64,000 bases of DNA from Candidatus Nomurabacteria bacterium (GCA_023267195.1 JAHFNT010000002.1:87830-151829), one strand, 5' to 3'. Shown: positions 1 to 56,744, counted from the stretch's first letter. Translations and numbers: made by a program. Notes: a model not told the origin generated them from the letters alone.

Positions 1-153
1 AGCATTTTTATCGGCCCGGAAGGAGGTTTTACTGAAAAAGAAATAAATTTAGCAGAAAAATCCGGCTACAGCGTAGCTTCTCTCGGCCCATTAACTCTAC
101 GCGGGGAAACCGCCGCCATTGTCGCCACCTATCGAGCAGTGGAAGGAATCTAG
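1..153 (+). CDS. rsmE: 16S rRNA (uracil-N3) methyltransferase RsmE family, C-terminal fragment (5' part lies outside the window)
   Basis: Frame 1 reads SIFIGPEGGFTEKEINLAEKSGYSVASLGPLTLRGETAAIVATYRAVEGI*. The GPEGG..E......G.....LG..ILR.ETA motif is typical of the RsmE C-terminus. Confidence 0.55.
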   Translation, partial: SIFIGPEGGFTEKEINLAEKSGYSVASLGPLTLRGETAAIVATYRAVEGI

Positions 154-13833: not shown

Positions 13834-13967
13834 AAAAAATTTAAAAAAGACACAAGAAAGACCACAGACATAAGAAAAACAAGGAAAAACCCTTATTTTT
13901 CATAACTATAACTTTTTAAAAACTGCAGTTAGTATGATACACTATTATTAAAAAAATTACAACCCCA

Positions 13968-14213
13968 CTATAACCTTTTGATTATCCGACCCTTCCCCCC
14001 ATAAGAATCAAGTACGACTTCGACCCCATCTCCGATTAGAACTTTGATTCTATGCATTCTCATTTTTCCACCCAAATATGCCAGAATTTCTTTTTGATTT
14101 TCTTTATTTTCCTCTTTGGGTTCACCTATCCTAACCCTAAATAAAGTGCTGGGTAATGCCTCAGTGACAACTCCCCTAACTGTCACAATTTTTTCATTTC
14201 TTCGATCGCTCAT
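13968..14213 (-). CDS. infA: translation initiation factor IF-1
   Basis: 81 aa with an S1-like fold: GVVTEALPSTLFRVRI...HRIKVLIGDGVEV. Confidence 0.93.
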   Translation of the reverse strand: MSDRRNEKIVTVRGVVTEALPSTLFRVRIGEPKEENKENQKEILAYLGGKMRMHRIKVLIGDGVEVVLDSYGGKGRIIKRL

Positions 14214-14268
14214 GTATAGACTTGAATTATAATAAAATTAAAAATTTATGTCAATCAATTAATCAGAA

Positions 14269-15570
14269 CTATCTCGGATTATTGATCGTAACTTTAATAT
14301 TTTCAATTTTATCTGGGATACGCTTTATCCAGGGAAAGCTGATCTTGAGCAACGCAGAATCTATATTAGGATACTGCGACAATATACTGCCAAAATCCTT
14401 TTTGGGTTTTCCAGACAAATCAGCTATAAATTTATTTATATCCAAACTCCAGACAATTTTTACAGAACCCGATAATGTAAAATTGATCTCTTTCAAATTC
14501 ACAAAAGAAATATTGTCCTTGTTGGCAAGCGTGAAAGCGATATTTCCAATATTTGGTATATAAACTTCACTACCGTCATATTTTTCTATATTGTTTTCAG
14601 CGATTTTCTTGGTAAGTTTTTGTTCGTTAAATAAAACACCATAAAGAGTGCCTTTCTCGGTCAAAATGGCTCGACCATCATCACTGATAGACGATAAAAT
14701 ATTGGAGTCGTCTATGCTTAAGAAAACTGCCCCCTTGAATAAAATAAAACCGCCGGGAATCTGGTCGGTTGCTTTTTTAAACAATTTTGCCTGAAGATTT
14801 GCTCTTAAGGTCTTTATGGCGGTCTCCTTATCAGTATCTCTAATGGCTGGAATTTTACCCTTGAATCCTCCGATTATTTCTCCCTTTGACCTGCCGTAAA
14901 ACTTAGAATATTTAGGTGTTCCCTTGAAACCCAAAATTTTAAAGTCAAGAGGGAGACTATTGTATTCTTCTCCTGCCTCGCTTCCATAAACCTTTACTTC
15001 AACCGACCCAGGGGTACCATCTTTTTTCATACCTGGTACAACTATTTTTGTCTGCGTTTTATAAATCTTTCCATTGGAACCTTCCAATCTTGTATCAACA
15101 CTAAGCGCTTGTGTAGATGAATTGAAAGCATTATAAATGACGACTACCCCTTTTGCATATTCTTTAGCATCTTTCTCCCCTGCCGCATTCACTACCAAGG
15201 TTTCTTCATCAGAAATACTCATTAAATCAAAAAATAAACCACTATTGTTTGAATCATTACTAGCAAATAAATTTTCATTCAAAACTATGTCTTTTGTCTT
15301 TAAATCCACAGAAATTTCTGCTTTAGAAAATAAAAAAGAAAAGGCAAACAGACAAAACACTACGGAGACAAATGCGAGGCACCAAAGCATATAACGAGAT
15401 CTGCTTTTCGCACGATCCATTACTGTATTTTCTGTTACTATATATTGCGAAGTTTTTTTGACTGTATTTTCTTTAAATTGAAACTGGTTCTCTCGTTTTT
15501 CAGTCACAACCTGGTTCCTAGATTTTTGTGTCGGATGCCTTACCATATCTTGTATTAAATGTTTAGGCAT
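14269..15570 (-). CDS. hypothetical membrane-anchored protein (one N-proximal TM helix, large extracytoplasmic domain)
   Basis: TM segment MLWCLAFVSVVFCLFAFSFLF and no recognisable motif. It occupies the position where secY-adk-map would normally precede infA. Confidence 0.45.
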   Translation of the reverse strand: MPKHLIQDMVRHPTQKSRNQVVTEKRENQFQFKENTVKKTSQYIVTENTVMDRAKSRSRYMLWCLAFVSVVFCLFAFSFLFSKAEISVDLKTKDIVLNENLFASNDSNNSGLFFDLMSISDEETLVVNAAGEKDAKEYAKGVVVIYNAFNSSTQALSVDTRLEGSNGKIYKTQTKIVVPGMKKDGTPGSVEVKVYGSEAGEEYNSLPLDFKILGFKGTPKYSKFYGRSKGEIIGGFKGKIPAIRDTDKETAIKTLRANLQAKLFKKATDQIPGGFILFKGAVFLSIDDSNILSSISDDGRAILTEKGTLYGVLFNEQKLTKKIAENNIEKYDGSEVYIPNIGNIAFTLANKDNISFVNLKEINFTLSGSVKIVWSLDINKFIADLSGKPKKDFGSILSQYPNIDSALLKISFPWIKRIPDKIENIKVTINNPR

Positions 15571-21716: not shown

Positions 21717-23135
21717 TTATATGGGCAAATTTGTCGGCGGAGCGGCCTCTTTTGATTCAATGCGTTCAAGGGTTGGAACTTTCAAGATCTGGCCTGGGAA
21801 ATGCCACAAGGTCGCGAGTTCTTCGACGTTTAAGACAAAAGTGTAATGATGAAAATAAGCTTTAATCAGAGCATCCAGAGAAATAACTCCGGAAATAGGC
21901 CAGTCCCAATGATGTTGAGAAAAAATATGATGACGGAGAGGCAGATGGAAAAATGCCCGTTCTCGGTATTCATTCAGCATTCTGTTAGCCAACATCATAA
22001 CAGTTTTTTGGGAAGCAATAAAATATCCACCATATGCATCCCCTTGGGCTGAGTTGCAACGCACCAGGCCATTTGAGTCAGGTGATGCATATTGGCGAAA
22101 AACTAGGCGTAGATTTCTCCTATTACTCATATCATATACTTCCTTTTTGGCAATATAACAAACTCGAATACCAGTATCAAAACCAATTTTACCGGTTTTC
22201 GCGCTCATCGCTTTGGTAACTCTATCTAGAAATGCCGGAACGCGGATTTCAATTCTAGCTACTTTAATAACTGCCGCGCCCTCCTGTTCCTTTCTTTGAG
22301 AAGTATAGGGGGAAAGCAATCTTAACAATTCTTCCCTTGCTTCCTCTACCCAGTCATGTGTACCAAACCAAGTACCATGAGTTTTATATTCTTTCTTGGA
22401 TGGAGTAATCACGATCTGCATCCACATCTGTTCTCCTTTTTTTAGAGAACCGAAAAGTTCTATAACGGGAGAAATAGGGTCAACTTTAAATTCTTCCTTT
22501 GGATCTTTGTCGAGCCCATAATCAACATAAGTCTTGAGTGGATAAGCTTCTGGTTTTAATAATTTAAACTCGCAACCCCAGCCATTCCAAGCGCTTTTGG
22601 GAGAAATTTCATCAACCGCTAAAGTATAATCCTCTACTTCTTTGACCTGTGCCTGAGGATATTGCGCATACATTTGCGTCTCTATTAGGCCCCGTACGCG
22701 AGTAGGCGTCCGAATGTAAAAATGCACTTGCCCGTCAATCGAAGCAATTTCCAGGGAAAACCAAAACCAAACTGCTCCCTGCCACCACTCTTCGGCTCCT
22801 CCCTTCAAACTCCAGTGGTATAGAGCATTAGTAAAGAAAAGCTCCATGGCTTTCGGACTCCGCAAGACTTCACGCGGAGGAATTATTTCTAACAAAACAA
22901 AATCTATACCCGAAATAAAATCCTGCTGAATATAATGAAGCCATAACTTCCAAGCAATTCGACCAAGTACTACAACCCCAATGATAGACAAGGCGAGCCG
23001 AATTAAACCATATTGTAAATTATATTTAACAAGAAAATACCCGATTACAATAACCAGGATAGCAATCCAATGTTCCTTTAAAGTTTCTTCAATAGAATCT
23101 AAAATTCCTCCGGAGCCATGTTGTTCATCAGCCAT
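21717..23135 (-). CDS. hypothetical membrane protein (two N-terminal TM helices, large conserved C-terminal domain)
   Basis: No recognisable catalytic motif. Co-directional with, and immediately downstream of, the sigma-region-4/HARE-HTH gene. Confidence 0.45.
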   Translation of the reverse strand: MADEQHGSGGILDSIEETLKEHWIAILVIVIGYFLVKYNLQYGLIRLALSIIGVVVLGRIAWKLWLHYIQQDFISGIDFVLLEIIPPREVLRSPKAMELFFTNALYHWSLKGGAEEWWQGAVWFWFSLEIASIDGQVHFYIRTPTRVRGLIETQMYAQYPQAQVKEVEDYTLAVDEISPKSAWNGWGCEFKLLKPEAYPLKTYVDYGLDKDPKEEFKVDPISPVIELFGSLKKGEQMWMQIVITPSKKEYKTHGTWFGTHDWVEEAREELLRLLSPYTSQRKEQEGAAVIKVARIEIRVPAFLDRVTKAMSAKTGKIGFDTGIRVCYIAKKEVYDMSNRRNLRLVFRQYASPDSNGLVRCNSAQGDAYGGYFIASQKTVMMLANRMLNEYRERAFFHLPLRHHIFSQHHWDWPISGVISLDALIKAYFHHYTFVLNVEELATLWHFPGQILKVPTLERIESKEAAPPTNLPI

Positions 23136-35706: not shown

Positions 35707-35778
35707 GGCCTGGTAGCCAAGTGGTAAGGCATTCCTCTGCAAAAGGAATATACGGCGGTTCAATTCCGCCCCAGGCCT
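35707..35778 (+). tRNA. tRNA-Cys (GCA)
   Basis: Acceptor ggcctgg/ccaggcc, anticodon stem ttcct/aggaa with loop ctGCAaa, T-arm ggcgg-ttcaatt-ccgcc. Confidence 0.8.
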
Positions 35779-35896
35779 CAAAAAATTAAACAGTTTTAAT
35801 TTTTTGCTGGTTCGCAGCAAGCGAAATTGCCGATGTGAGACGAAATCGAGCAGGCAATAAGAAAAGAGATATGTTAAAATATTTTAGGATATAATT

Positions 35897-35978
35897 TGCC
35901 CGAGTGGCGGAACTGGTATACGCGCACGACTTAAAATCGTGTCTCGCAAGGGATGTGGGTTCGATTCCCACCTCGGGC
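35897..35978 (+). tRNA. tRNA-Leu (TAA)
   Basis: Acceptor gcccgag/ctcgggc, anticodon loop ctTAAaa, long variable arm, T-arm tgggttcgattccca. Confidence 0.78.
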
Positions 35979-36010
35979 ACTGGGAATCTTTAAAAATTAA
36001 ATATAAATTT

Positions 36011-36083
36011 GCGTCCATAGCTCAGCTGGTAGAGCAGATCCCTCTTAAGGATAAGGTCGGAGGTTCGATCCCTCCTGGACGCA
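36011..36083 (+). tRNA. tRNA-Lys (CTT)
   Basis: Acceptor gcgtcca/tggacgc, D-arm gctc-agctggta-gagc, anticodon loop ctCTTaa, T-arm ggagg-ttcgatc-cctcc. Confidence 0.7.
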
Positions 36084-36111
36084 CAGGGCAAAAATAAAGT
36101 AGTTTATTTTT

Positions 36112-36196
36112 GCCGGGGTGGCGAAATTGGCAGACGCACTTGCCTTAGGAGCAAGCGGAGTGATCCATGGGAGTTCAAGTCTCCCCCCCGGCACCA
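36112..36196 (+). tRNA. tRNA-Leu (TAG)
   Basis: Acceptor gccgggg/ccccggc, anticodon stem cttgc/gcaag with loop ctTAGga, long variable arm, CCA encoded. Confidence 0.8.
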
Positions 36197-36232
36197 CTTG
36201 ACTTTTACTCTTGAATATGCTATACTATACCT

Positions 36233-37060
36233 ATGAGTAAAATAAATAAAAAATCAATGAGTTTCGGCTTGAAAATATTGACTATTTTAGCTTTCTGCCT
36301 CCTTTTTGTACCTTTTGAAAAAGCGGCAGCATCCTATGGTACCAATATCACTTACAATGTAGGTGGTGGAAGCTATTTCGGCAGAACGCCCATAGATCAG
36401 CCGGTAGAAATAGAAAATAACCCGGTTCCGGGTGTCAGATCTATCAACCCAAGATCTGCCGACAGATATACAGGCGGAAAAACTATTACCATCACTGGAA
36501 GCAATTTCGTACCTGGTTCAGTAGCTAGATTGAACGGCTCAAATCGCCCCACAACCTTTATTGATTATTCTCATCTGTTGATTCAATTAAGCGCAAGCGA
36601 CATGAATCGTGCCGATGGTTTTTACATCACGGTCTTCAATGGTCTGCCTGGTGGTGGGTATTCTAATGCGGCTTTCTTCACTATCAAAAATGTCTCTCCT
36701 GCTTCCACTAACACAAGCAATAGCAATAACAACTTCAACAACAACTCCAGTGGCTATGATTATTCTGCCAATAGCAACTTTAACAACGCAAATAATACAG
36801 CCAACTGGAATACCAACACCTACGATGCTTATTCCAACACAACCAACACCACTACGGAAATAAACAGAACAAATGATACCACAGGAAACAGCTACAGCAA
36901 TTTAGCCTCGAATGCAATCTTTGGATCAAACACTTTCTTACCTTCTGGATTGGTGCAATGGGTATTGCTCGCAATAATCATCCTAATCATTGTGATCTTG
37001 GCAAGGAAAATATTCGGCGGAGAAAAGAGTTATCACGAAACACCGCTGAAACACGCGTAA
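36233..37060 (+). CDS. cell-surface protein: signal peptide, IPT/TIG-like Ig domain, N/S/T-rich low-complexity linker, C-terminal TM anchor
   Basis: The TIG-like segment is GGKTITITGSNFVPGSVARLNGSNRPTTFIDYSHLLIQL. The Asn/Thr/Ser-rich tract is followed by a hydrophobic C-terminus (VLLAIIILIIVIL) and a basic tail. Confidence 0.55.
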   Translation: MSKINKKSMSFGLKILTILAFCLLFVPFEKAAASYGTNITYNVGGGSYFGRTPIDQPVEIENNPVPGVRSINPRSADRYTGGKTITITGSNFVPGSVARLNGSNRPTTFIDYSHLLIQLSASDMNRADGFYITVFNGLPGGGYSNAAFFTIKNVSPASTNTSNSNNNFNNNSSGYDYSANSNFNNANNTANWNTNTYDAYSNTTNTTTEINRTNDTTGNSYSNLASNAIFGSNTFLPSGLVQWVLLAIIILIIVILARKIFGGEKSYHETPLKHA

Positions 37061-37080
37061 AAAAGCTTCAAAATAACGAA

Positions 37081-37115
37081 AAAGTCAGCCTCAATAGGGT
37101 TGACTTTTTCGTTAT
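37081..37115 (+). terminator. rho-independent terminator after the 36233-37060 gene
   Basis: aaagtcagcc-tcaata-gggttgacttttt (10-bp stem with one G-U) plus a T-run. Confidence 0.6.
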
Positions 37116-37128
37116 TGTATGATACAAT
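37100..37128 (+). promoter_or_regulatory. sigma70-like promoter (TTGACT-17-TACAAT) driving the GC-rich SPFH island transcript
   Basis: The -35 lies in the terminator's descending arm. About 250 nt of GC-palindrome-rich leader follows before the ATG at 37386. Confidence 0.4.
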
Positions 37129-37385
37129 ATCGGAGTATTCTAGTACTTTGAAAATAAGAAATAAAAACATTGAGGTAAGACCTCAGTGTTGAATAGTTGG
37201 CTCGCCAAGAAATGAAACAACCTCTCCGGCCTTCGGCCACCCTCTCCTGGCCAGGAGAGGGCCAGGGTGAGGTAGTCAAATTTATTTTTTAGCGAGCGAA
37301 CTATTCACGAAGTTTCAGTATTCACCAATCTCACAACCCGCGCCCGCGGGCGCACAACAGCGCCAACGGCGCAGGAGAAAAGAAA

Positions 37386-38243
37386 ATGAACGGAAATCTG
37401 GCACCACGCACAGAAACATCGGGGGGGCTGCTTATAAAACTGATCGGGCTAGGCCTGATCGGTGGGATCTTCTTCCATTGGCTCCTCCAGTTCTGGGGTG
37501 TGGTAATCTTCTTCGTGGTCCTCGCAATCACGACAGAATACTACACTGAGACGGTAGCTGGATACCGGGCCCACATCCTGCTTGACCAGTGGAAGGGCAC
37601 CCAGCGAACGGTCTTTCAGGGCTGGTGGTTCAAACTTCCTTGGGAAACTCTTACTCAGGACATCGATCTAAAGGGTGAACTCAAGGAAGTGCTCACTGAA
37701 ACCTACAGTTCTAGGGACGGATCGATGGATGTCAAGTATGTCTATACGATTCGCCCCGACTTTTTCGGTCCAGATGGAGGTGAGAAGATCATCTTGTATG
37801 CGTCCTTTGAAACGGACGTGATCAAGATGAAGGGCCGGGCCTGCGCCAGCCAGGCGCTGTCCGACTACTTCGGTACGAAACCGACCGAAGAGCTTCTCGA
37901 CAAGCACAAGATCGAAGAGGAAGCTCTTAAGTCTGGGTCGAAGGGGAAACTGAAGCTCGAAGAGTTCGAGAAACACTATGGAGCGAGGATCGAGATCACC
38001 CTCGAAGACAGCGATCGGGACAAGGCGACACAGGCTGCCCGTGACACTGTCTCGAAGGCGAAGTCGATCGCCGAGGCGAAGGCCGCGCTCGTGGCAACTG
38101 GTATGGATCCAGCAGTTGCAGACAAGACTGTAAGGATGCTCAACATCCCTGGTATCCAGGAGTACATCGTGAATCTGGATGCCAAGGGGCTTGAGAACCT
38201 AACCAGTGTGGTCATCGGCGGAGGACTCGGGGTGAAGAAATGA
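37386..38243 (+). CDS. SPFH / band-7 (stomatin-prohibitin-flotillin-HflK/C) family membrane protein
   Basis: N-terminal TM. TVFQGWWFKLPWETL..DLKGELKEVLTETYSSRDGSMDVKYVYTIRP and GARIEITLEDSD...AARDTVSKAKSIAEAKAA match the SPFH core and Ala/Glu-rich tail. The segment is high-GC, unlike the flanks. Confidence 0.6.
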   Translation: MNGNLAPRTETSGGLLIKLIGLGLIGGIFFHWLLQFWGVVIFFVVLAITTEYYTETVAGYRAHILLDQWKGTQRTVFQGWWFKLPWETLTQDIDLKGELKEVLTETYSSRDGSMDVKYVYTIRPDFFGPDGGEKIILYASFETDVIKMKGRACASQALSDYFGTKPTEELLDKHKIEEEALKSGSKGKLKLEEFEKHYGARIEITLEDSDRDKATQAARDTVSKAKSIAEAKAALVATGMDPAVADKTVRMLNIPGIQEYIVNLDAKGLENLTSVVIGGGLGVKK

Positions 38244-38662
38244 GCCATGATTCTTCTTCCCCCAACACTCCCCCTAGGGGACCTGCAGTCATCAGTGGGG
38301 TCTTCTTGTTGATCGCATTGATCTTGTCGGTAAGGGAATACAGGGCACAGAGGGCAACGCCCGACCCCACTCCGATCCCCACGCCGGCCCCCCACTACCA
38401 GCCCGCGCCGGCAGTTCCGACCCAGGCAAGGAGGCTCTACCTCTTTGCTGACTACCCGAACGGCGTCATCACGGTAGATGTACACATCGGGGAGGTGGAC
38501 TTCTACCCCAAAGGCGGAGAGGTGTTGATCACCCCTCCGCCCCCACTCAAGCCGTGGAAGGACAAGCCCGGAACGATCAACCCTCGCAGGAAGTTCATCC
38601 CGGGTAAATACAACATCCAAAAGTCAGATCCTGATGCCATCGGCATCGAGGTCTGGAACTAA
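38240..38662 (+). CDS. membrane-anchored Pro-rich protein, translationally coupled (ATGA overlap) to the SPFH gene; function unknown
   Basis: One TM (VISGVFLLIALILSV), a PTPIPTPAP linker, and a small beta-rich C-terminal domain. A weak resemblance to NfeD was considered but not supported. Confidence 0.45.
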   Translation: MSHDSSSPNTPPRGPAVISGVFLLIALILSVREYRAQRATPDPTPIPTPAPHYQPAPAVPTQARRLYLFADYPNGVITVDVHIGEVDFYPKGGEVLITPPPPLKPWKDKPGTINPRRKFIPGKYNIQKSDPDAIGIEVWN

Positions 38663-38713
38663 CAACTGTTCTTCGGCCACACATCGCGCCTGGCCAGCGT
38701 ACGCATCGAATCG

Positions 38714-38749
38714 AAAAGGGCGGACAGGTTTTGAAACCTACCGCCCTTT
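38714..38749. terminator. bidirectional hairpin terminator between the GC-rich island (+) and the pilin-like array (-)
   Basis: aaaagggcgg-acaggttttgaaacctac-ccgcccttt. Confidence 0.55.
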
Positions 38750-38777
38750 CTCAATTTCTACCCAAATTTTTTTCTTA

Positions 38778-39104
38778 CTAGCTAGGCTCAGGTAAATCCA
38801 CTGTTCCCTTTTCTGGATCTATTTGACTCTTGGGTATACCTAGTGTATTCAGAAGAATGCTGAGAATAGTCCAAACTCCCATCATTATGGTGATCCCTAT
38901 CACCCCCCAAAGCATATGGCTCTTCGCGGTTGTTTTTTTCTCTTCGTTTTCTTGATTCAAAAAGAACTGAAGAACGCCATAGAGAAAATAAAGTATCGCT
39001 AAAGCAAAAAGGAAAAGAATGAGTGGATTTATAATCACAGTATCAACTTTTGCTATAAAAGAATCCAAGCTAGCGTAAGCTATTTTTGTAGAAAATAAAT
39101 CCAT
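38778..39104 (-). CDS. small 2-TM hairpin 'pilin-like' membrane protein, paralog 5 of tandem array
   Basis: INPLILFLFALAILYFLYGV - NQENEEKK - MLWGVIGITIMMGVWTIL. Same helix / G.EE.K loop / GhhGhhhhhGhW helix architecture as 39110-41237. Confidence 0.55.
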   Translation of the reverse strand: MDLFSTKIAYASLDSFIAKVDTVIINPLILFLFALAILYFLYGVLQFFLNQENEEKKTTAKSHMLWGVIGITIMMGVWTILSILLNTLGIPKSQIDPEKGTVDLPEPS

Positions 39105-39109
39105 GTTTA

Positions 39110-39484
39110 TTAATACTGAACAGTTGGAAGATTTACATTCTGGACATTACCAACACCAAACGAGTCCAATAGAAGATTTACTAGACCCCAGACACCCACG
39201 ATAACCGCAAGACCGACTATACCGTAGATCATCACGCTTCTAGCGCTAGATTTCTTCTCTTCATCACCGGCAATAACATAGGAGATAACTCCCCAGATGA
39301 AGTAGAGTACTGCCAAAACGATGACTATTGGAATAGCAGCATTCAAAAAATCTCCTACTTTACAAAGCACATTCTGGATCGTTCCAGAATTAGTATTCAG
39401 GTCACAAAAAGCCTGAGTCTGTGCAAACGCAACGACCGGTAAACTCAAAACCAAACCTGACAATACCATTAATTTCTTTTTCAT
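39110..39484 (-). CDS. small secreted 2-TM hairpin 'pilin-like' protein, paralog 4
   Basis: Signal peptide, Cys pair (AFCDLN...VLCKVGD), AIPIVIVLAVLYFIWGV - AGDEEKKSSARS - MIYGIVGLAVIVGVWGLV. Confidence 0.55.
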   Translation of the reverse strand: MKKKLMVLSGLVLSLPVVAFAQTQAFCDLNTNSGTIQNVLCKVGDFLNAAIPIVIVLAVLYFIWGVISYVIAGDEEKKSSARSVMIYGIVGLAVIVGVWGLVNLLLDSFGVGNVQNVNLPTVQY

Positions 39485-39601
39485 AATTTATTTACCCCGC
39501 CTAGCGGGGCAAGCTAACAATAATTAATAATAAATGCGACCTATAATAATAAACTAATAATGTCCTCTAATTATAACCCTTAATAAAATTACAAGCAAAT
39601 A

Positions 39602-40411
39602 CTAATTCCCACTACACCCTGGATAATTGCCACAATAGTCTGGATCGGAAGGATCAAGAGAACAACTATTGCAGATATTGCCACCGCCTGTACCGCCTCC
39701 TCCCCCGCCAGTGGTAGTGGAAGAACTTGGAGGTGTAACTTGGGGCAGGATGGAAGTGTTGTTGATGCCGAAGGTAGCGCGCAGTATTCCTACCAATCCC
39801 CAAACAGACAGCATCACCGCGAAAGCTATAACTCCCCAGATCATGAATTGCTTGCCTTCGGATCTCTTCTCCTCTTCTCCGCCATTGATCAGAAAAAATT
39901 TTACTGTTCCCCAGATAAACATAACGAAAGCTATGGCAAAGAGAAGCGGAACTATAGAATCATTAATAATACTAGTTAGGTAACATAGAACATCCTGAAA
40001 CGTGGAAGAGCTGGTTATCCCAGAACAAGCGCTACTTGTCACTATGGGTTGAAGCTGAGGAGCAGTGGCTCCACCCAAATCAAAAGTATTAATTAAAATT
40101 TCAACAATCCCCCAGATACCGACGATGACAGTAAGACCGATAACCCCGAAAACCATTGTATCCCTGCCTTTTGTCTTGGCTTCTTCATCTCCACCGATGA
40201 CATATCGGATGACACCCCAAATGAAATAAGCGAGACCAAGGGCCACCAAGACAGGCACTACGGCCTTCAAGAGCTCCCCGATCTGACAGATTACCTTCCC
40301 TAGACCCGTCAAGGCATCACACGGCCCAGCCGCCCAAGCAATAAAAGGAAACAAAAAGAGCACAGGTATAATGAAACGAAACCTAGAAACAAATTTAAAT
40401 AAATTTTTCAT
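39602..40411 (-). CDS. tandem-duplicated (two-domain) 'pilin-like' protein, paralog 3, with Gly-run and Cys-rich C-terminal knob
   Basis: Two copies of the Cys-pair / helix / GGDEEAK or NGGEEEK loop / GxxGxxxxxGxWG unit. C-terminus is TTGGGGGGTGGGNICNSCSLDPSDPDYCGNYPGCSGN. Confidence 0.55.
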   Translation of the reverse strand: MKNLFKFVSRFRFIIPVLFLFPFIAWAAGPCDALTGLGKVICQIGELLKAVVPVLVALGLAYFIWGVIRYVIGGDEEAKTKGRDTMVFGVIGLTVIVGIWGIVEILINTFDLGGATAPQLQPIVTSSACSGITSSSTFQDVLCYLTSIINDSIVPLLFAIAFVMFIWGTVKFFLINGGEEEKRSEGKQFMIWGVIAFAVMLSVWGLVGILRATFGINNTSILPQVTPPSSSTTTGGGGGGTGGGNICNSCSLDPSDPDYCGNYPGCSGN

Positions 40412-40417
40412 AAATTT

Positions 40418-40798
40418 TTATTTTAACGCATTTACGGTGCTCTGGATCATCTCCGCAATAGCCCAAGAACCAAGCAGTATCCCAGCGCCGATTACTGTAT
40501 AAAGGAGGGCGTCCTTAGCCTTGGTAAGTTCTTCTTCCTTGCCTTGAGCTTTCACGAAAAGGAAACCGCAGTAAATAACAGCGAGCGCTATCAAGGGTAT
40601 GCCGACCTTAAGCGCGCCTTCTAAGATGACTTGAACAAGCCCTGGTATTGAGGTGATGTCCGGTATGGGGTTGCAGATTTTGCCGAGACAGGGATCAACA
40701 ACTGTTCCCCCTTGATCTGCAAATACAACAAAAACGGGCAGGAAAAAATAAAAACTACTTAAGATTAATTTCTGCCAATTTGTTTTTAAAAAATTCAT
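40418..40798 (-). CDS. small secreted 2-TM hairpin 'pilin-like' protein, paralog 2
   Basis: Signal peptide MNFLKTNWQKLILSSFYFFLPVFVVFA, Cys pair (DPCLGKICNP), GIPLIALAVIYCGFLFV - AQGKEEELTKAK - LLYTVIGAGILLGSWAIA. Start set at the internal ATG. Confidence 0.5.
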   Translation of the reverse strand: MNFLKTNWQKLILSSFYFFLPVFVVFADQGGTVVDPCLGKICNPIPDITSIPGLVQVILEGALKVGIPLIALAVIYCGFLFVKAQGKEEELTKAKDALLYTVIGAGILLGSWAIAEMIQSTVNALK

Positions 40799-40817
40799 TA
40801 CATTATTATACTCCATC

Positions 40818-41237
40818 TTAAAATCCAATCCAAGCCGCATCTTTATAACCTAAAATTACTAAGATCGTTTTGATGATAAGCCAAGCGGCCAGGGCGATGA
40901 TCAAACCTAGCGCCGCGTTGGTAAAAATATTTTTGGCTTCCGTCTTGGCACTAGCAGATTCTTCCCCAGCTGTCACCAATTTAAACCCCGCGTAAGCAAA
41001 CATGATGGCACAAATTGGCACTACCATGTATTTCAAAGTGAAAGTTATGAGGTTATTAACCAAAGCCAAAATCGCATTAAAATCGCAAGGCTGACCTTGT
41101 GAATTATCGCAGGGAACCAAGGGGTCCCCAAATGAATAAGCCGTGGTGAGCATCGGCAGAACTAGAATCATAAAAACAAACACTGAAACGATTAGGAACT
41201 TAGGAGTGCAAATTTGAAATTTATTTATTTTAGACAT
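40818..41237 (-). CDS. small secreted 2-TM hairpin 'pilin-like' protein, paralog 1
   Basis: Signal/TM, Cys pair (VPCDNSQGQPCDF), VVPICAIMFAYAGFKLV - AGEESASAKTEAK - FTNAALGLIIALAAWLII. Confidence 0.5.
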   Translation of the reverse strand: MSKINKFQICTPKFLIVSVFVFMILVLPMLTTAYSFGDPLVPCDNSQGQPCDFNAILALVNNLITFTLKYMVVPICAIMFAYAGFKLVTAGEESASAKTEAKNIFTNAALGLIIALAAWLIIKTILVILGYKDAAWIGF

Positions 41238-41242
41238 AAATA

Positions 41243-42532
41243 TTATCTGGATAATAAAAGATTCAGTTTGGAACTTGCGTCTTTGATGGCGTCCGAAGCA
41301 GAGAAATTATTGGAAAGTACTCCATTCACCATCCCGCTAAAAATACTATCAGTATCCCTAGAGGAAGGGTCAAGCCAGCTTCTAGCATAAAGAGCCGAAC
41401 TATAAAAAATAGGCGAAAAAGCATCCGCCGGTTTAGCGGCTAAGAGCTCTCGGCGAGCCGGGGCCACGCCCATAATAGAAGAAAAGCTCGAAGCAAAGCT
41501 AGAGGTTGATAGCAAGTTAGCTGCAGTAAAGGCCGTATTAAAATTCTTAGAAGAAGATAAAATAGCTATCCCCATCACCCGAGCGCCAGTTGATTTAAAA
41601 TTAGAATTTTTAATCTGCGGGATCGGCGCGACGAAAAAATTCTGATTTGGATTCCTGTTTACCAAAGATTGAAGTTCAGAAGCATAACCAAAATAAAAAG
41701 TTAAATCTTCTCTAGAAAAAGCGTCACTGGAATTCGGGAAAGATCTATTCCAAGAATACGCAGGGCTATTCGGATCCGCAAAATCCGTATAAAATTTTAA
41801 AATTGAAGCGAGGTTGTAATTGCCAATCGATGAATCCAAAGAGGAGTTAAAAATTCCATTGTTTTCCACCACGAGCGGATTGCCAGCTTGCATAAATAGG
41901 GTCGCGAGAATATCTTTCGCGTGAACCACGTTTGAAAAGTGCCCAAGCGCCACTGCTGGTTTGATTATTTTATTTGCATTATCTTTTTTAATGAGAGTGG
42001 GCACCATATTAGTAAGCTCATCCCAGGTCGCGGGAGGATAGACTACGCCATTTGCATCGAGGGCACTTCGGCTGTAATACATCATAAGCGGATCAATGGA
42101 CATAGGAAAGGCTAAAACTCCTTTGCTTGTCAAAAATACTTCCCCAGCTCCAGCAAAAATACTTTTGAAAGTAGAGAGCGGATAACTATTATAGGGAATG
42201 GTAAAGATTTTCTTGGCATAATGAAATACGAGATTATCCGGCAGGAAAAATAGATCCGGTCCCCTGCCTTCAGCTAAGGCCTCAAGCAGATCTTGATCAA
42301 AAGTACTGGCAGATTTCTCCACATAGTTCACTACGAATGTGGGATTGGCTTCGTTAAAATTCTTAAGCGCATTGCCCATTGCCGCAGCCGGAACAGTACC
42401 CCATAGCGTCACCGTGCCTAGGCCACCTGGCGCATCATTTTTGCCTAGCGGTATCGCACCGGAAAAAACCAAAACACCAAACACCGCGGCGACAATAAAT
42501 ACAGCTAAAATAATAATTTGAAAATTTTTCAT
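41243..42532 (-). CDS. extracellular solute-binding protein, family 1 (ABC-type SBP-like), orphan
   Basis: N-terminal anchor, then TVTLWG...ALKNFNEANPTFVVNYVEK...DLLEALAEGRGPDLFFLPDNLVFHYAKKIFTIPYN (SBP_bac_1 pattern). No permease or ATPase genes nearby. Confidence 0.65.
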   Translation of the reverse strand: MKNFQIIILAVFIVAAVFGVLVFSGAIPLGKNDAPGGLGTVTLWGTVPAAAMGNALKNFNEANPTFVVNYVEKSASTFDQDLLEALAEGRGPDLFFLPDNLVFHYAKKIFTIPYNSYPLSTFKSIFAGAGEVFLTSKGVLAFPMSIDPLMMYYSRSALDANGVVYPPATWDELTNMVPTLIKKDNANKIIKPAVALGHFSNVVHAKDILATLFMQAGNPLVVENNGIFNSSLDSSIGNYNLASILKFYTDFADPNSPAYSWNRSFPNSSDAFSREDLTFYFGYASELQSLVNRNPNQNFFVAPIPQIKNSNFKSTGARVMGIAILSSSKNFNTAFTAANLLSTSSFASSFSSIMGVAPARRELLAAKPADAFSPIFYSSALYARSWLDPSSRDTDSIFSGMVNGVLSNNFSASDAIKDASSKLNLLLSR

Positions 42533-42546
42533 CCTGTTGCTTAATT

Positions 42547-43068
42547 TTAATCCTTCATTAATATCATACCATAATGATGACTTCCCGCATCAATCTCTCG
42601 TTCCCAAGTAAAACCCTTTTTCTCAAACATTTCACGGGCTTTTTGCTTGGGCACAACTCTCATTCCGGTAATAGCAGACACTTCCGACCAATCAATCAAA
42701 AGCACCTTCCCCTTCGGCCTCAGGATTCTCTTCGTTTCTAAAATAAAATTTTCTCTATCTTCTACTTGGAAAAGTATATTGGAAGCAATCACCGCATCGA
42801 TAACGCTATCCCCTATTTTTGTTCCGCCTATTTTCTCCACATTGCCCCAAATTATTTCCACATTGCCGAGATGCGCTTCTTTTACTTTGCTTTGAATTGT
42901 GTCCAAAAAATCTTTCTGTAATTCAACTGCGTATACTTTGCCTCTCGGCACAATCTTTCCGAGCAGAACCGAATAGTATCCAGTGCCAGCACCCAAATCG
43001 GCGACAATACTGCCTTCTTGCAATCCAAGAGTTTTTAAATTTTTTAATGGATCGGTGAACACCCGCAT
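42547..43068 (-). CDS. class I SAM-dependent methyltransferase
   Basis: Motif I is VADLGAGTGYYSVLL. Post-I acidic residue in AVELQ. Motif II-like IDAVIASNILFQVED. Confidence 0.8.
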   Translation of the reverse strand: MRVFTDPLKNLKTLGLQEGSIVADLGAGTGYYSVLLGKIVPRGKVYAVELQKDFLDTIQSKVKEAHLGNVEIIWGNVEKIGGTKIGDSVIDAVIASNILFQVEDRENFILETKRILRPKGKVLLIDWSEVSAITGMRVVPKQKAREMFEKKGFTWEREIDAGSHHYGMILMKD

Positions 43069-43084
43069 ATTATAATATAAATTT

Positions 43085-43111
43085 AAAAATCCCGCACTAT
43101 GCGGGATTTTT
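43085..43111 (-). terminator. rho-independent terminator separating the Ig-like protein gene from the methyltransferase-SBP-pilin-like operon
   Basis: aaaaatcccgca-cta-tgcgggattttt is a perfect 12-bp stem with flanking A/T runs (bidirectional). Confidence 0.65.
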
Positions 43112-43126
43112 AAACCTTTTTTTGAA

Positions 43127-44047
43127 TTAGAAATTATCCAACCCTTGGGGCTCTGTGGATGTGGTTCCGCAAAGTTTTACATCAGTTTTCCATTTTGACC
43201 AGGCATCTTTTACCGAAACTAAACGTACACCACGAGCTGTATTTTGTGCTGTTTTAAAATTAGTCCAAGCAGTATTTATCGCCTTATTTCTTTCAGAAAC
43301 AACAGTTTTATCCCAAGCTTCTAGTAGAGCTGCTTTTCTTGTTTGTAAAGATGCCGCTACTGAGTTGGTAAACGTAGACACACTGGCAGCTACCGTTTGT
43401 TCTCTTAGAGAAAGAGCGTCTTTTACACAAGCGATATTGACATTAACAACAATTGGAATATTAACTTTAAATTTACCATAACTTACCGTTACCCTTTTAT
43501 CAGTCGATTTAATATCACCTCCATCTTTTATGGTCGTGGTAAATCCTAAACTTTCAAAAACGGCCTGTGTGCTAAAAACAACGTCTTCCCTTGTTCCATC
43601 CGATTTAATTAATGTTACAATCAAACCAGCTAAATTTAATTTCTCCCCAAAAGTATAGGTGGTTTTATAAGGTTGTTGTTTTACTTCAAATTTTACCGGT
43701 CTAGTTACGGTAATAGCTTGACTCACTGTTTTGCCCCCTACTCTTATCACAACTTTATTACCAGTAAATAGACTGGTCCCATTTGCGGGACTTGTGGTAA
43801 TACCATTAGCACTAAAAGCACTAGTTGAAAAGATAACATCCCTATCAACAGAAATTCCATTACTTTTAGATGATATCGTTACCACTAATCCTGTCAAATC
43901 TAGCAACTCTCCTGCTTTATAATTAACTTTTACGGGTGGTGTCGTAACCTTGACACCGGTAATTATGGAAACATCTTGAGCATAAACCGAAGAACTAAAC
44001 GCAAACAAAATCATCAAAAATCCAAGAAACGATATTGCTTTTTTCAT
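43127..44047 (-). CDS. secreted protein with two bacterial Ig-like (Big_3-like) repeats and a C-terminal helical region
   Basis: Signal peptide MKKAISFLGFLMILFAFSSSVYA. Repeats KVNYKAGELLDLTGLVVTISSKSNG and KTTYTFGEKLNLAGLIVTLIKSDGT. Confidence 0.5.
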   Translation of the reverse strand: MKKAISFLGFLMILFAFSSSVYAQDVSIITGVKVTTPPVKVNYKAGELLDLTGLVVTISSKSNGISVDRDVIFSTSAFSANGITTSPANGTSLFTGNKVVIRVGGKTVSQAITVTRPVKFEVKQQPYKTTYTFGEKLNLAGLIVTLIKSDGTREDVVFSTQAVFESLGFTTTIKDGGDIKSTDKRVTVSYGKFKVNIPIVVNVNIACVKDALSLREQTVAASVSTFTNSVAASLQTRKAALLEAWDKTVVSERNKAINTAWTNFKTAQNTARGVRLVSVKDAWSKWKTDVKLCGTTSTEPQGLDNF

Positions 44048-47596: not shown

Positions 47597-49195
47597 ATGA
47601 GCATTTTTGAAAGATGGCAAACAGGTATAGAAACAAAAACAAGTGCTGAAAAATTACCAAAATATCTGTCTATGTATAAAATTCCCGGGCACGAACAGAT
47701 AACTTATCACTCTTTTGTCAGATACCAAAAAGATAAAAAGCAAGATAAAGCGATAAAGGAAGCGGCAGATTTTGCGGCGAATTATAAAAAAAGGATAAAA
47801 AACTCCTCTCCTGAAGATATGATTACATTGATCGAGCAGGGCCTCGCTGAAAATAATGTAAAAACGCAAATAATGTGCGTAGAAATGATTAGGTATGTTA
47901 AAGAGATTGGCAAAAGATTTTCTCTTATTGAAAAGGTAATTGACATCGACAATGAAGAGTTGCAAGCCGCCTGCGCAGAAGCTGTCAGATATGTTCCATT
48001 GGATAAAAGAGATATCTTGATTGAAAAAGGTTTAAACTCCAACAATGAGGAAATACAAGCAGTTTACGCGGAAATGATTAGGTGTGTTCAAGAAGGCAGA
48101 AGAGCTGCATTAATTGAAAAATGCTTAGACATCTGTGGTCTAAAAGCTAGGGTTGTCGCAGCCTTAATGATTTTTCAATATACTACACCAAAAAACCGTC
48201 CAATGCTTGAAGAAAAAGTAGCTGCATTAGTTAAAAATTATTTATCTAGCAATAATGCTAAATTGCAAATAGGTTGTATCAAGATGATATGGAACGCACC
48301 AAAAGATCAGATGTCCACACTAATTGAACAAGGTATTGATACCAACAATATTGAAGTTCAGGCAGCTTGCGCTGGTATGATTGAATATATTATAGAAACT
48401 AACGAAAGAAAAAAACTTAGGGCAAAAATATACAGTGTTATAGAACAGGGTTTTGAAACAAACGATCCAGAAAAACATCTGTTTTGCGCAGAAATGATTC
48501 GCAGTATACCGACAGATCAACAAAATTTGCTTGGAGACAAGTTGGCATCTTTAATAAAAAAAATACTTGAATCTGACAATAGTAATGAAATTAAAAAAGT
48601 GTACGCGGCTATGATCTGTTATGCATCAGAAAACAAAAAAGCAGACCTTTTTAAGCAAGCCTGGGGGAAACTAGGCAATACTTTAATAGAACCACCTTTG
48701 TATGAAAATATGGATATGTCCAAAAGAAAATTTTCAAGAATGGAATTTTCAAAAACCGGTTCAGAAACTACGTTAATTGGAGGCAAATTAAAAGATAAAA
48801 TAATAATTAGGCATATTACACCAGAATCTTTCTTGGCCTGGCAAAAATTATACGAGGATTATGAAATGTGGGCAAAAGCAGGCTTTGATTATGTGCCCAT
48901 AGAACCAATACAGTCGTTTAAGTTAAATGGAAATGGTCTAGTCGATGTGTATAGTGGTGTTTTAGATTTGAATTTGGATGATTGGAAAAAATATATAGGA
49001 GGATATGACCGAGCTTTAGATGGTGTTAAAGAGCGCATAAAAGGTATTTTAATAGAAAGAGGAATAATTCATGGGCATGATTATCATGACGGAAATTTCT
49101 GCCTACGTTTTTTTAGAGACAAAAATGGCAATATAGATTTTAGTAAAAAACCACGTGTTTATATTATTGATTTTGACATGGCCACAATCATGTAG
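47597..49195 (+). CDS. fusion protein: N-terminal HEAT/PBS-lyase-like repeats plus C-terminal divergent RIO/Kdo-like protein-kinase-fold domain
   Basis: About 8 repeats of LIEQGL..NN.E.Q..C.EMIRYV with about 36-aa period. C-terminal IIHGHDYHDGNFCLRF...VYIIDFDMA resembles the RIO/Kdo-kinase catalytic and metal-binding loops (LVHGDLSEYN...IIDFPQ), with a non-canonical catalytic loop. Confidence 0.5.
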   Translation: MSIFERWQTGIETKTSAEKLPKYLSMYKIPGHEQITYHSFVRYQKDKKQDKAIKEAADFAANYKKRIKNSSPEDMITLIEQGLAENNVKTQIMCVEMIRYVKEIGKRFSLIEKVIDIDNEELQAACAEAVRYVPLDKRDILIEKGLNSNNEEIQAVYAEMIRCVQEGRRAALIEKCLDICGLKARVVAALMIFQYTTPKNRPMLEEKVAALVKNYLSSNNAKLQIGCIKMIWNAPKDQMSTLIEQGIDTNNIEVQAACAGMIEYIIETNERKKLRAKIYSVIEQGFETNDPEKHLFCAEMIRSIPTDQQNLLGDKLASLIKKILESDNSNEIKKVYAAMICYASENKKADLFKQAWGKLGNTLIEPPLYENMDMSKRKFSRMEFSKTGSETTLIGGKLKDKIIIRHITPESFLAWQKLYEDYEMWAKAGFDYVPIEPIQSFKLNGNGLVDVYSGVLDLNLDDWKKYIGGYDRALDGVKERIKGILIERGIIHGHDYHDGNFCLRFFRDKNGNIDFSKKPRVYIIDFDMATIM

Positions 49196-56222: not shown

Positions 56223-56744
56223 TTATGATTTTTTGGGCCAAATAGCAACGAAGTAAGCGCTAGGCTCTAAAACATTATTAAACCAGATAAATAACAATTC
56301 TTCTTTAGAAATTTTATGTCTTTGGCCATCTTTTGGATCATTGTAAAAGAAAATACCATTTTTATATCCGGTAATAACAATAAAGTGACCATTTGGAGAT
56401 GGCTTTTTATTAAAAAGCAGAAAAGATCTGACTAATAAAATTACCGGCACCCCTTTTGATAAATATTCTTCTATACGTTTTACATTTGGCCTTTCTATCT
56501 CTGCTTTTCCGCCTGCCGCTTTCTCATTAAAAGAAAAGCATTTGCTTTGGTAGCCTGCGTATTTTGCATAATCAGCTAGTGCAATAGTTCTGACTCCATA
56601 TTTTCTGAGACCGCCAATAAACTTTATAATTTCTTTTTCATTGATCTCTTTTCCGAAATACTTAAAAATCATACGAAGTGCCGTAGGTCCGCAAGTGTCC
56701 TTCTTTTGCTTCAGCAATGGAACATTGAGAATTTTATTTTTCAT
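56223..56744 (-). CDS. peptidase C39-like (papain-fold) domain protein
   Basis: LLKQKKDTCGPTALRMIFKYFG with catalytic Cys context, later GHFIVITGY..NDP (His region). Confidence 0.5.
   Translation of the reverse strand: MKNKILNVPLLKQKKDTCGPTALRMIFKYFGKEINEKEIIKFIGGLRKYGVRTIALADYAKYAGYQSKCFSFNEKAAGGKAEIERPNVKRIEEYLSKGVPVILLVRSFLLFNKKPSPNGHFIVITGYKNGIFFYNDPKDGQRHKISKEELLFIWFNNVLEPSAYFVAIWPKKS

Follow-up and report, generated by a model that had tools for sequence, protein, structure and literature searches.

The window analysed, a 64,000-nucleotide (64 kb) stretch of DNA from a Candidatus Nomurabacteria bacterium, contains five small tandem genes that, at a probability of roughly 60%, encode six VirB2-like pilin domains of a Patescibacterial T4SS in its Paceibacteria/Parcubacteria form. 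These would build a pilus or channel dependent on a T4SS encoded elsewhere, with a solute-binding protein (SBP)-like component as an extracytoplasmic accessory. ORF translation gave seven open reading frames, all on the minus strand, exactly where the initial annotation had placed them, and the unit comprises the following features:

42547-43068, minus strand, methyltransferase (MT), 173 aa
41243-42532, minus strand, solute-binding protein (SBP), 429 aa
40818-41237, minus strand, pilin paralogue P1, 139 aa
40418-40840, minus strand, pilin paralogue P2, 140 aa
39602-40411, minus strand, pilin paralogue P3, 269 aa, two domains
39485-39601, minus strand, intergenic gap P3/P4, 117 nt
39110-39484, minus strand, pilin paralogue P4, 124 aa
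38778-39104, minus strand, pilin paralogue P5, 108 aa
43082-43114, unstranded, palindromic terminator hairpin, -21.8 kcal/mol, z -6.8
38714-38749, unstranded, bidirectional terminator hairpin, -29.4 kcal/mol, z -5.5

The initial annotation had described a minus-strand unit between two hairpins, holding a class I SAM methyltransferase, a family-1 SBP and five small genes with six hairpin domains; its limits and its content were both upheld, and folding gave the two boundary hairpins a stability far above that of shuffled sequence. The hairpin at 43082-43114 marks the end of an upstream Big_3 gene as well as the 5' boundary of the unit, with a TATAAT immediately 5' of the MT start codon, and the hairpin at 38714-38749 is common to the pilin unit and a convergent plus-strand gene ending at 38662. 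Within the array, the P3/P4 gap holds a promoter-like TTGCTT-N17-TATAAT site and a small GC hairpin (z -2.55 on folding) just 5' of the P4 start, and its size is conserved, with a median of ~100 nt at the same junction in relatives. P2 as listed overlaps P1 by 23 nt; its true start is probably the Met at ~40798, which would give a normal signal peptide. The MT, the SBP and the pilin array are co-transcribed, and probably also translationally coupled.

All five small proteins exceeded the Pfam gathering threshold of 26.6 bits for PF18895 (T4SS_pilin), scoring 33.8 (P1), 27.1 (P2), 67.0 (P3, in two stretches), 39.8 (P4) and 30.7 bits (P5), and the VirB2/TrbC-type reading first proposed for them is thus borne out. 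Among the five genes, the TrbC/VirB2 profile PF04956 gave a sub-threshold match on P2 only (E 3.8e-4). The NCBIfam model NF045849 (pilin-like conjugal transfer protein) matched P3 at 43.4 bits against a cutoff of 40, with weaker matches on the other four pilin genes. Furthermore, all 339 P4 homologues carry PF18895, and NCBI names homologues of the small proteins 'pilin', some of those of P4 among them. Between the small proteins and solved conjugative pilins, no significant sequence or structure match was obtained. The pilin reading of the small genes is correct and already known in the literature: PF18895 is a curated Pfam family across Patescibacteria with published tandem arrays (PMC12102498, PMC10633639), and the earlier suggestion of a family specific to this lineage does not hold.

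The six domain copies align over ~90 residues with pairwise identities of 16-45% and share a P-containing first helix, an acidic (D/E)EE..K loop and a G..G.....G.W second helix. In P1-P4 a signal peptide precedes a pair of hydrophobic helices with a short charged loop between them, and an AF2 model of P4 shows a helical hairpin (helix 36-71, loop, helix 75-108). P5 consists of the hairpin without signal peptide or Cys pair, an absence conserved in its orthologues, so that the architecture initially ascribed to all the small proteins stands for the hairpin, acidic loop and second helix of all six domains but fails for these two elements in P5. Lys/Arg number 3-4 in the inter-helix loop against 0-1 in the outer segments, which by the positive-inside rule points to an N-out, loop-in, C-out topology; the Cys pair would therefore lie outside, and a single chain could hold two hairpins, as P3 does. 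In F and T pilins both termini face outward and the loop faces the cytoplasm or lumen. By sequence inspection, the pilin signal peptides are of the Sec type with AxA-like sites. Consistent with the first description, no class III signal peptide with its prepilin-peptidase site (G/F(M)xxxE; G-F...E5 motif) was found in the N-terminal sequences of the pilins or the SBP; given the Sec-type signal peptides and the missing prepilin-peptidase motif, type IV (T4P/T2SS) pilins were rejected.

Each paralogue has a fixed place in the array. P1 (signal peptide, Cys pair and helical hairpin) always comes first, and its orthologues often bear large N-terminal extracellular inserts, one of them reaching 386 aa. 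P2, always second, is the most TrbC/VirB2-like member, and its orthologues also give weak TrbC matches. P3 combines two tandem hairpin domains with a Gly-run/Cys tail; the two-domain gene and its Gly-run/Cys-knob tail are present here as first described, but the tail occurs in few orthologues only, and in 13 relatives the counterpart of P3 is two separate genes. P4, with signal peptide, Cys pair and hairpin, belongs to an expandable P3/P4 class, and P5, always last, is the best conserved of the five (mean identity 64.5%). These comparisons show that the paralogues are not copies diversifying at will but ancient positional orthologues, arranged P1-P2-(P3/P4)n-P5. Such positional orthology over deep divergence also bears on the notion that the small proteins belong to the phage- or toxin-related membrane peptides, such as holins and bacteriocin-immunity proteins. 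Small size, two hydrophobic helices and tandem paralogues would speak for it. It is hardly credible, however, in view of PF18895 membership, the fixed core-chromosome site by gyrA across the whole class and the lack of adjacent phage, toxin or bacteriocin-export genes.

The SBP matched PF01547 at 69.7 bits (threshold 26), and its family profile aligned over the full length of 4r9f (MBP1; E 1.2e-24). The full-length SBP fold is supported by these sequence profiles, the AF2 model being poor (pLDDT 52). At E<1e-30 the family numbers 1070 representatives (50% clusters). Aromatic and polar residues are invariant at many positions, as expected for a sugar pocket, and an N-terminal 'FQ' with a transmembrane anchor is conserved across relatives of 35-45% identity; the SBP sequence has no lipobox. 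The initial annotation had called it an orphan family-1 SBP, and this was confirmed for the 64 kb window, where neither a cognate permease (BPD_transp_1) nor an ABC ATPase was found. Likewise, neither gene occurs within 10 kb in six Pfam-annotated relatives (L003, L005, L007, L169, L170 and L171). We infer that the SBP may serve as an extracytoplasmic carbohydrate-binding accessory of the pilin apparatus and not as an ordinary ABC-importer receptor.

The class I SAM methyltransferase assignment was likewise sound. The MT scored above the Pfam cutoffs for Methyltransf_11, 25 and 31, its translation contains the glycine-rich SAM motif VADLGAGTGYYS, and its best PDB match was 3dh0, an uncharacterised methyltransferase (E 2e-17); no specific methyltransferase family was matched in the profile and PDB searches. 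The protein lacks a signal peptide and is presumed to be cytoplasmic. That it modifies the pilins is pure conjecture.

Synteny across CPR genomes, proposed at the outset as a check, showed that the MT-SBP-pilin unit is kept in near and distant loci. In 78/78 close genomes and 66 of 68 distant metagenome loci the pilin array comes directly after the SBP orthologue, which has the MT directly before it in 74/74 near and 60/66 distant loci (~6 distant loci have no MT), although adjacency is weaker evidence of functional coupling than these figures imply because the whole neighbourhood is syntenic and all loci were retrieved via SBP orthologues of one class. The same gene order was seen in Pfam-annotated contigs of Wolfebacteria, Zambryskibacteria and others. 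The surrounding S1, Lactamase_B_3, gyrA, IF-2 and RbfA genes are syntenic in the same loci. The SBP is conserved to about the same degree as the MT (67% each) and comes close to IF-2 (73%).

Such a background is what would be expected if the MT and SBP were mere neighbours of the array, with the SBP serving an ABC sugar importer encoded elsewhere, the MT acting on a housekeeping substrate and their adjacency inherited in a slowly rearranging core region. Housekeeping S1, gyrA, IF-2 and RbfA are equally syntenic, the SBP profile fits a bona fide oligosaccharide SBP along its full length, and the MT is missing in some lineages and has no specific family assignment. However, the junctions are tight (MT-SBP median 8-9 nt, SBP-first pilin 5-6 nt, over near and distant locus sets), and even where SBP identity is down to 35-45%, spacings are still 0-9 nt and stop and start codons still overlap. 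Moreover, insertions and gene turnover flank the unit on both sides: between gyrA and the MT lie the Big_3 gene here, an IS200-type gene in L005 and two small genes in L171, and gene content 3' of the pilin array is variable, but no insertion was seen inside MT-SBP-pilins in the relatives compared. Together with the missing permease and ATPase genes, here and in the six relatives, this makes mere neighbourhood unlikely.

The channel itself is not encoded nearby. Profile searches of the 64 kb window detected no VirB4, VirB6 or VirB3/PrgI, which counts against the T4SS-pilin reading, and the only T4SS-related gene was a soluble VirD4/TraD-like ATPase at 150-2207, 36 kb away. The initial statement that no T4SS machinery lies nearby therefore stands for channel and VirB4 genes, and holds for the window only, 64 kb of a contig of ~190 kb; in published surveys most Patescibacteria have VirB4, frequently at a distance from the pilin genes, and only 1,135 of 1,948 assemblies have pilin genes in the vicinity of virB4 (PMC12102498). 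The lack of a permease, ATPase or T4SS channel gene could also indicate that the hairpins are integral-membrane parts of a T4SS-independent complex with the anchored SBP, for example a device for uptake or sensing that is fed by the SBP, does not belong to the ABC type and has the 2-TM hairpins as its membrane part. The SBP and hairpin genes always occur together and are probably coupled in translation, the conservation of the SBP transmembrane helix looks like that of a helix packing against partners, the fixed stoichiometric set P1-P2-(P3/P4)n-P5 is more like a defined complex than like a variable repertoire of pilins, and P5 has no signal peptide. However, homology indicates VirB2/TrbC-type pilins, the homologous Southlakia array sits in a T4SS cluster without an SBP, and the operon has no energy-coupling component. 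To our knowledge there is no precedent for an SBP-fed 2-TM hairpin transporter, which also counts against such a complex, and we consider it quite improbable.

Diderm T4SSs usually have one major pilin, encoded in the T4SS operon, and processing enzymes such as the TraX acetylase and TraF cyclase. With the VirB2/TrbC/TraA pilins (Agrobacterium T-pilus, RP4, F pilus) the small proteins share a signal peptide, a hydrophobic two-helix hairpin with a charged loop and the weak PF04956 match; in contrast, the present system lies in a monoderm host, comprises five or six paralogues and carries a Cys pair and an acidic DEE loop. The Mbov_0395 family (NF045849) of Mycoplasma ICEs is a pilin-like hairpin protein in the T4SS of a wall-less monoderm, and P3 scores above its cutoff, but NF045849 models a domain of 80 positions and derives from mobile elements, whereas the present array consists of core genes of the chromosome.

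Closer counterparts are found among the Patescibacteria. Six tandem PF18895 genes, SEML1_0014-0019, are essential in Candidatus Southlakia epibionticum ML1, of the Saccharimonadia (Wang et al., 2023; PMC10633639). Both loci have six tandem divergent PF18895 units (six domains in five genes here), small proteins and sub-threshold TrbC/VirB2 matches on some members. However, the Southlakia array lies inside a T4SS cluster, with genes annotated as PrgI family, TrbL/VirB6-like and lysozyme-like and without an SBP or methyltransferase, whereas here the array adjoins gyrA behind the MT and SBP; essentiality is established for the Southlakia array only. The absence of an SBP from that cluster and the absence of the MT from ~6 distant loci both count against the preferred reading.

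A survey centred on the virB4 neighbourhood reported PF18895/PF04956 tandem arrays of 2-11 genes in 383 Patescibacteria assemblies, most abundantly in Microgenomatia and Saccharimonadia, and proposed host-range or antigenic versatility for them (Quinonero-Coronel et al., 2025; PMC12102498). Taking as an array at least two tandem PF18895/PF04956 genes of low mutual identity, the present locus is one, with five adjacent genes and six domains; within-array identity is similarly low (reported mean 25%, 16-45% here) and pilin genes are often distant from virB4. It differs in its fixed positional orthologues, its Paceibacterial host and the MT-SBP operon. No SBP is mentioned in that survey ('solute-binding' occurs 0 times in PMC12102498), and published accounts of these arrays report no pilus built of PF18895 pilins in any Patescibacterium, a further point against the T4SS-pilin reading. 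The MT-SBP-pilin operon context was not found described in the literature; a Paceibacteria-wide tight operon of a pilin array, a membrane-anchored sugar-binding-type protein and a small methyltransferase is thus apparently new.

MalE-type family-1 SBPs such as 4r9f resemble the present protein in the above-cutoff PF01547 match, the full-length alignment and the sugar-pocket-like residues, but here there is no adjacent permease or ATPase in the loci examined, FQ and the transmembrane helix are conserved, and the gene is probably translationally coupled to pilin genes. In the ChvE-VirA system of Agrobacterium, a periplasmic sugar-binding protein senses host-derived sugars in a T4SS pathway. ChvE, however, is from a different SBP family, also serves in an ABC importer, works through a sensor kinase and has its gene apart from that of the pilin; it offers a functional analogy only for an SBP serving a T4SS.

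On the preferred T4SS-pilin reading, the signal peptides would be cleaved and the hairpins pooled in the membrane, from which they would be extracted and polymerised by a machine of the monoderm conjugation (MPF-FATA) type that is driven by VirB4 and encoded at another site of the genome. The product would be a heteromeric pilus or conduit at the host-cell interface, with surface-exposed decorations formed by the N-terminal domains of P1 and the C-terminal tails of P3, both of them variable, and with P4, which has its own promoter-like site, as the candidate major subunit. Held in the membrane by its unusually conserved N-terminal helix, the SBP may act as receptor, adhesin or assembly factor, and the MT as a cytoplasmic accessory of the apparatus. 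In a stronger and very doubtful form of this proposal, the SBP would be integral to the Paceibacterial T4SS-pilus, capturing a host glycan or nutrient or recognising the host surface and handing over to the VirB2-like hairpin structure, with the MT tuning the acidic cytoplasmic pilin loops. If true, this would constitute an SBP-dependent uptake or recognition route without an ABC transporter.

The minus-strand unit proposed in the initial annotation proved to be real, with seven genes lying between two hairpins that are both far more stable than shuffled sequence. A methyltransferase gene (MT) and a solute-binding protein gene (SBP) head the unit, followed by five small hairpin genes, numbered P1-P5 in the direction of transcription (protein lengths from the ORF list).

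43082-43114: boundary hairpin, -21.8 kcal/mol, z -6.8, directly past the stop of the upstream Big_3-domain gene
42547-43068, minus strand: MT, 173 aa
41243-42532, minus strand: SBP, 429 aa
40818-41237, minus strand: P1, 139 aa
40418-40840, minus strand: P2, 140 aa
39602-40411, minus strand: P3, 269 aa
39110-39484, minus strand: P4, 124 aa
38778-39104, minus strand: P5, 108 aa
38714-38749: boundary hairpin, -29.4 kcal/mol, z -5.5, common to the operon and the convergent plus-strand gene

The genes are tightly packed, with spacers of 14 nt between MT and SBP, 5 nt between SBP and P1 and 5 nt between P4 and P5. The only loose spacer, the 117 nt ahead of P4, contains a promoter-like TTGCTT-N17-TATAAT site and a small GC hairpin. 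P2 probably starts at a Met near 40798. An Rfam scan of 36-45 kb of the window returned known tRNAs and sub-threshold noise, and nothing further; four tRNA genes (Cys, Leu-taa, Lys-ctt and Leu-tag) are located on the plus strand at 35707-36196, between IF-2 and a TIG-domain surface protein. The G+C content is 0.46 at 36001-40000, against roughly 0.35-0.41 across most of the window, and this segment spans the 3' half of the pilin array together with two variable convergent genes, at 37386-38243 (Band_7-like, one TM) and 38240-38662 (Pro-rich, one TM), both found in few relatives only.

The six hairpin domains (P3 holds two) are alignable across ~90 residues at 16-45% pairwise identity, and share a first helix with a proline, a loop of the form (D/E)EE..K and a second helix of the form G..G.....G.W. 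Of the architecture initially ascribed to every gene, the hairpin held for all six domains but the signal peptide and Cys pair did not: five of the six domains have the Cys pair, and P5, like its orthologues, keeps the hairpin without either feature. The two copies and Cys-knob tail described for P3 were both present in the window, although the tail was found in few relatives only. An AF2 model of P4 (pLDDT 67) folded as a hairpin whose two helices span 36-71 and 75-108. Each inter-helix loop carries 3-4 Lys/Arg, against 0-1 in the segments of P1-P4 outside the helices; under the positive-inside rule, this distribution indicates that the mature proteins are N-out, loop-in and C-out, a topology which would place the Cys pair outside the cell and which makes the head-to-tail fusion of two hairpins in P3 possible.

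The resemblance to VirB2/TrbC-type pilins, suggested earlier, was confirmed by Pfam profile searches, in which P1 to P5 scored 33.8, 27.1, 67.0, 39.8 and 30.7 bits, respectively, against T4SS_pilin (PF18895), all above the threshold of 26.6. P2 also gave a sub-threshold match to TrbC/VirB2 (PF04956, E 3.8e-4), and P3 exceeded the NCBIfam cutoff for the 'pilin-like conjugal transfer protein' of Mycoplasma ICE (NF045849), which the other four matched weakly. All of the database homologues of P4 (339/339) contain PF18895, and some are named 'pilin' by NCBI (Paceibacterota, Minisyncoccia). The small proteins hence belong to the VirB2-like family, with hairpin topology. A type IV pilin reading was ruled out, the prepilin-peptidase motif being absent from the small proteins, as originally noted. 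A role as holins, bacteriocins or immunity proteins was rejected in view of family membership and the core-chromosome location, and holin or immunity functions are very unlikely.

A Pfam search covered essentially all ORFs in the 64 kb window, and all ORFs of at least 100 aa were additionally screened for multiple transmembrane segments and ABC motifs. Neither an ABC permease or ABC ATPase nor VirB4, VirB6 or PrgI was found in the window by these screens, in agreement with the earlier description of an SBP lacking its transporter and of pilins with no T4SS machinery nearby. This lack of a T4SS core would fit a membrane complex formed by the SBP and the hairpins independently of a T4SS, which we consider distinctly unlikely. 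The sole T4SS-related gene in the window encodes a soluble VirD4/TraD-like ATPase (150-2207, minus strand; TrwB_AAD_bind, TraG-D_C, DUF87), 36 kb from the operon. It has no transmembrane segment, carries a C-terminal CxxC-x17-CxxC zinc-ribbon domain and a long Lys/Glu-rich tail, and adjoins DnaK, outside any T4SS cluster; a published survey counted ~2 VirD4/TraD-like genes per Patescibacterial genome, mostly unlinked to virB4.

Several further genes were seen in the window. A stand-alone Peptidase_C39-like cysteine protease of 173 aa, without an ABC exporter domain, lies directly 3' of secA (56223-56744, minus strand), and a 472 aa protein with two N-terminal transmembrane helices (21717-23135, minus strand) has no Pfam or NCBIfam match. 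Two adjacent paralogous Cys-rich proteins of 582 and 555 aa, dense in CxxC motifs (5936-7684 and 7768-9435, both minus strand), match no Pfam family above threshold, with weak treble-clef zinc-finger matches at the ends of the first.

Tandem pilin genes of this kind have been reported previously. Quinonero-Coronel et al. (2025; PMC12102498) applied PF18895 and PF04956 to 3,035 Patescibacteria genomes. VirB2-like pilins occurred together with VirB4 in 1,948 assemblies and near virB4 in only 1,135 of these. Arrays of 2-11 pilin genes numbered 441, spread over 383 assemblies (mean within-array identity 25%), and were suggested to give versatility towards different hosts. In Southlakia epibionticum, six tandem PF18895 genes (SEML1_0014-0019) were essential by Tn-seq (Wang et al., 2023; PMC10633639); that array lies inside a T4SS cluster, whereas the window array has no T4SS core within 64 kb. 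The pilin family and the tandem array are therefore already known, the window locus is a member of this published kind of gene array, and the VirB2-like pilin idea is right rather than new; with PF18895 arrays published across Patescibacteria, the suggestion of a lineage-specific family was incorrect. The class-wide MT-SBP operon context and the fixed paralogue order appear to be new, as we found no description of them. An SBP beside pilins is mentioned in neither PMC12102498 (where 'solute-binding' occurs 0 times) nor PMC10633639, and a literature search for an SBP paired with Paceibacteria pilins found no paper.

The SBP scored 69.7 bits against PF01547 (cutoff 26), identifying it as a family-1 solute-binding protein. 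The AF2 model built from 34 homologues (69-77% identity) had a mean pLDDT of 52, too poor for a fold search, and the structural match was taken instead from a profile-to-PDB sequence search, in which a distant-relative SBP profile matched 4r9f ('MBP1') over its full length (E 1.2e-24). Representatives of 50%-identity clusters were searched exhaustively, which placed the SBP in a large, full-length family (1,070 representatives at E<1e-30), and all representatives inspected have an N-terminal 'FQ' and hydrophobic helix. The MT was assigned as a class I SAM methyltransferase by generic matches, profile and PDB comparison yielding no specific family.

The conservation of the operon was examined in 80 species-level genome loci fetched via the SBP (59-76% identity; labelled Nomurabacteria, Paceibacterota or Minisyncoccia), with neighbours annotated using locally built pilin-domain HMMs. 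In this close set the order was S1< Lactamase_B_3> GyrA> MT> SBP>, 5-6 pilin genes, variable genes, TIG<, IF-2< throughout; a pilin gene directly followed SBP in 78/78 loci with sufficient sequence, and MT preceded SBP in 74/74. A more distant set of 80 metagenome loci was fetched with a profile of 70 representatives, its SBPs sharing 38-48% identity with a reference whose own identity to the window SBP is 35%. Here pilins followed SBP in 66/68 loci, MT preceded it in 60/66 and gyrA lay upstream in 49/49, with arrays of 4-7 genes; named members include Wolfebacteria, Zambryskibacteria, Yonathbacteria and 'Parcubacteria', and GyrA-MT-SBP-5xPF18895 was confirmed in Pfam-annotated contigs from three named distant lineages. 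Median junctions in both sets were 8-9 nt (MT to SBP) and 5-6 nt (SBP to first pilin).

No insertion was seen within MT-SBP-pilins among the annotated loci. The gap between gyrA and MT takes insertions, for example an IS200-type gene (L005), two small genes (L171) and, only in the window and L030, a predicted secreted Big_3 (bacterial Ig-like) gene (43127-44047, minus strand); in most other relatives MT directly follows gyrA. Gene content 3' of the pilin array also turns over. The adjacency counts overstate independent support, because all loci were retrieved via orthologues of one protein in one class and synteny extends to the housekeeping genes around the unit. Simple inherited synteny, with SBP and MT unrelated to the pilins, is an explanation we regard as unlikely. 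The MT-SBP-pilin unit and its paralogue order are deeply conserved, with operon structure.

Other features of these loci were also recorded. Between the Lactamase_B_3 and S1 genes of the window lies a 532 aa protein (47597-49195, plus strand) with 'IE(Q/K)G(L/I)..NN..(V/L)Q..C.EMI'-type helical repeats, HEAT/ARM-like by eye; it matches no family, and no homologue was detected in the 80 related genome loci. On a Zambryskibacteria-type contig (L170), a gene convergent to the array end and lacking a window counterpart (13905-15062) encodes a 385 aa protein with a weak match to PF18896 (SLT_3, lysozyme-like), which may be a VirB1-like wall hydrolase. In many assemblies of relatives (L009, L012, L016, L020, L021, L058, L060 and L068) the contig starts only ~16-21 kb upstream of SBP, which suggests that assembly breaks recurrently at a similar spacing from this locus, for instance at a repeat or an rRNA operon.

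Within the close set (n=79), the order P1-P2-P3-P4-P5 was found in 57 loci, and in 13 more with P3 as two genes. Distant arrays, assigned with paralogue-specific HMMs, have P1-P2 at the start, P5 at the end and 1-4 P3/P4-type copies between. Mean identity to the window was 64.5% for P5, 56% for P2, 52% for P4 and 51% for both P1 and P3, compared with 67% for SBP, 67% for MT, 73% for IF-2 and 88% for GyrA. P1 orthologues often contain large inserts between signal peptide and hairpin (the orthologue reaching 386 aa in Wolfebacteria), and the C-terminal tails of P3 orthologues are variable. The fixed ends, expandable middle and additions to P1 and P3 argue for distinct structural roles, in which the first, second and last subunits are fixed, the middle class can expand and decorations are exposed at the surface, and against free diversification of interchangeable copies. 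Antigenic-variation-type diversification is likewise disfavoured, both by the fixed order and orthology in the close loci and by the fixed ends of the distant arrays.

Taken as a whole, we favour pilins of a T4SS encoded elsewhere, with SBP and MT as accessories, at a probability of roughly 0.6. The hairpins would be exported by Sec and retained in the membrane, from which a VirB4-type T4SS encoded elsewhere may take them to build a heteromeric pilus or conduit at the contact with the host, in parallel to the proposal for Southlakia. The SBP, anchored by its conserved helix, could be an accessory that binds carbohydrate outside the cytoplasm, whether as receptor, adhesin or assembly factor. 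The MT is a putative cytoplasmic accessory, for which methylation of the acidic loop is one possibility only.

Patescibacteria, which live on other cells, account for a large part of uncultivated bacterial diversity. Their T4SS is essential in the sole member tested genetically, and so is its unusual multi-pilin array. If the linkage were mere synteny, the present locus would be one more example of a published gene array. As a class-wide, translationally coupled partnership of pilins with an SBP (and MT), it gives the testable hypothesis that a receptor for a ligand or the host surface is tied to the pilus. It also shows that each paralogue has a set structural role, whether first, second, in the expandable middle or last and signal-less, rather than belonging to an antigenic-variation repertoire.
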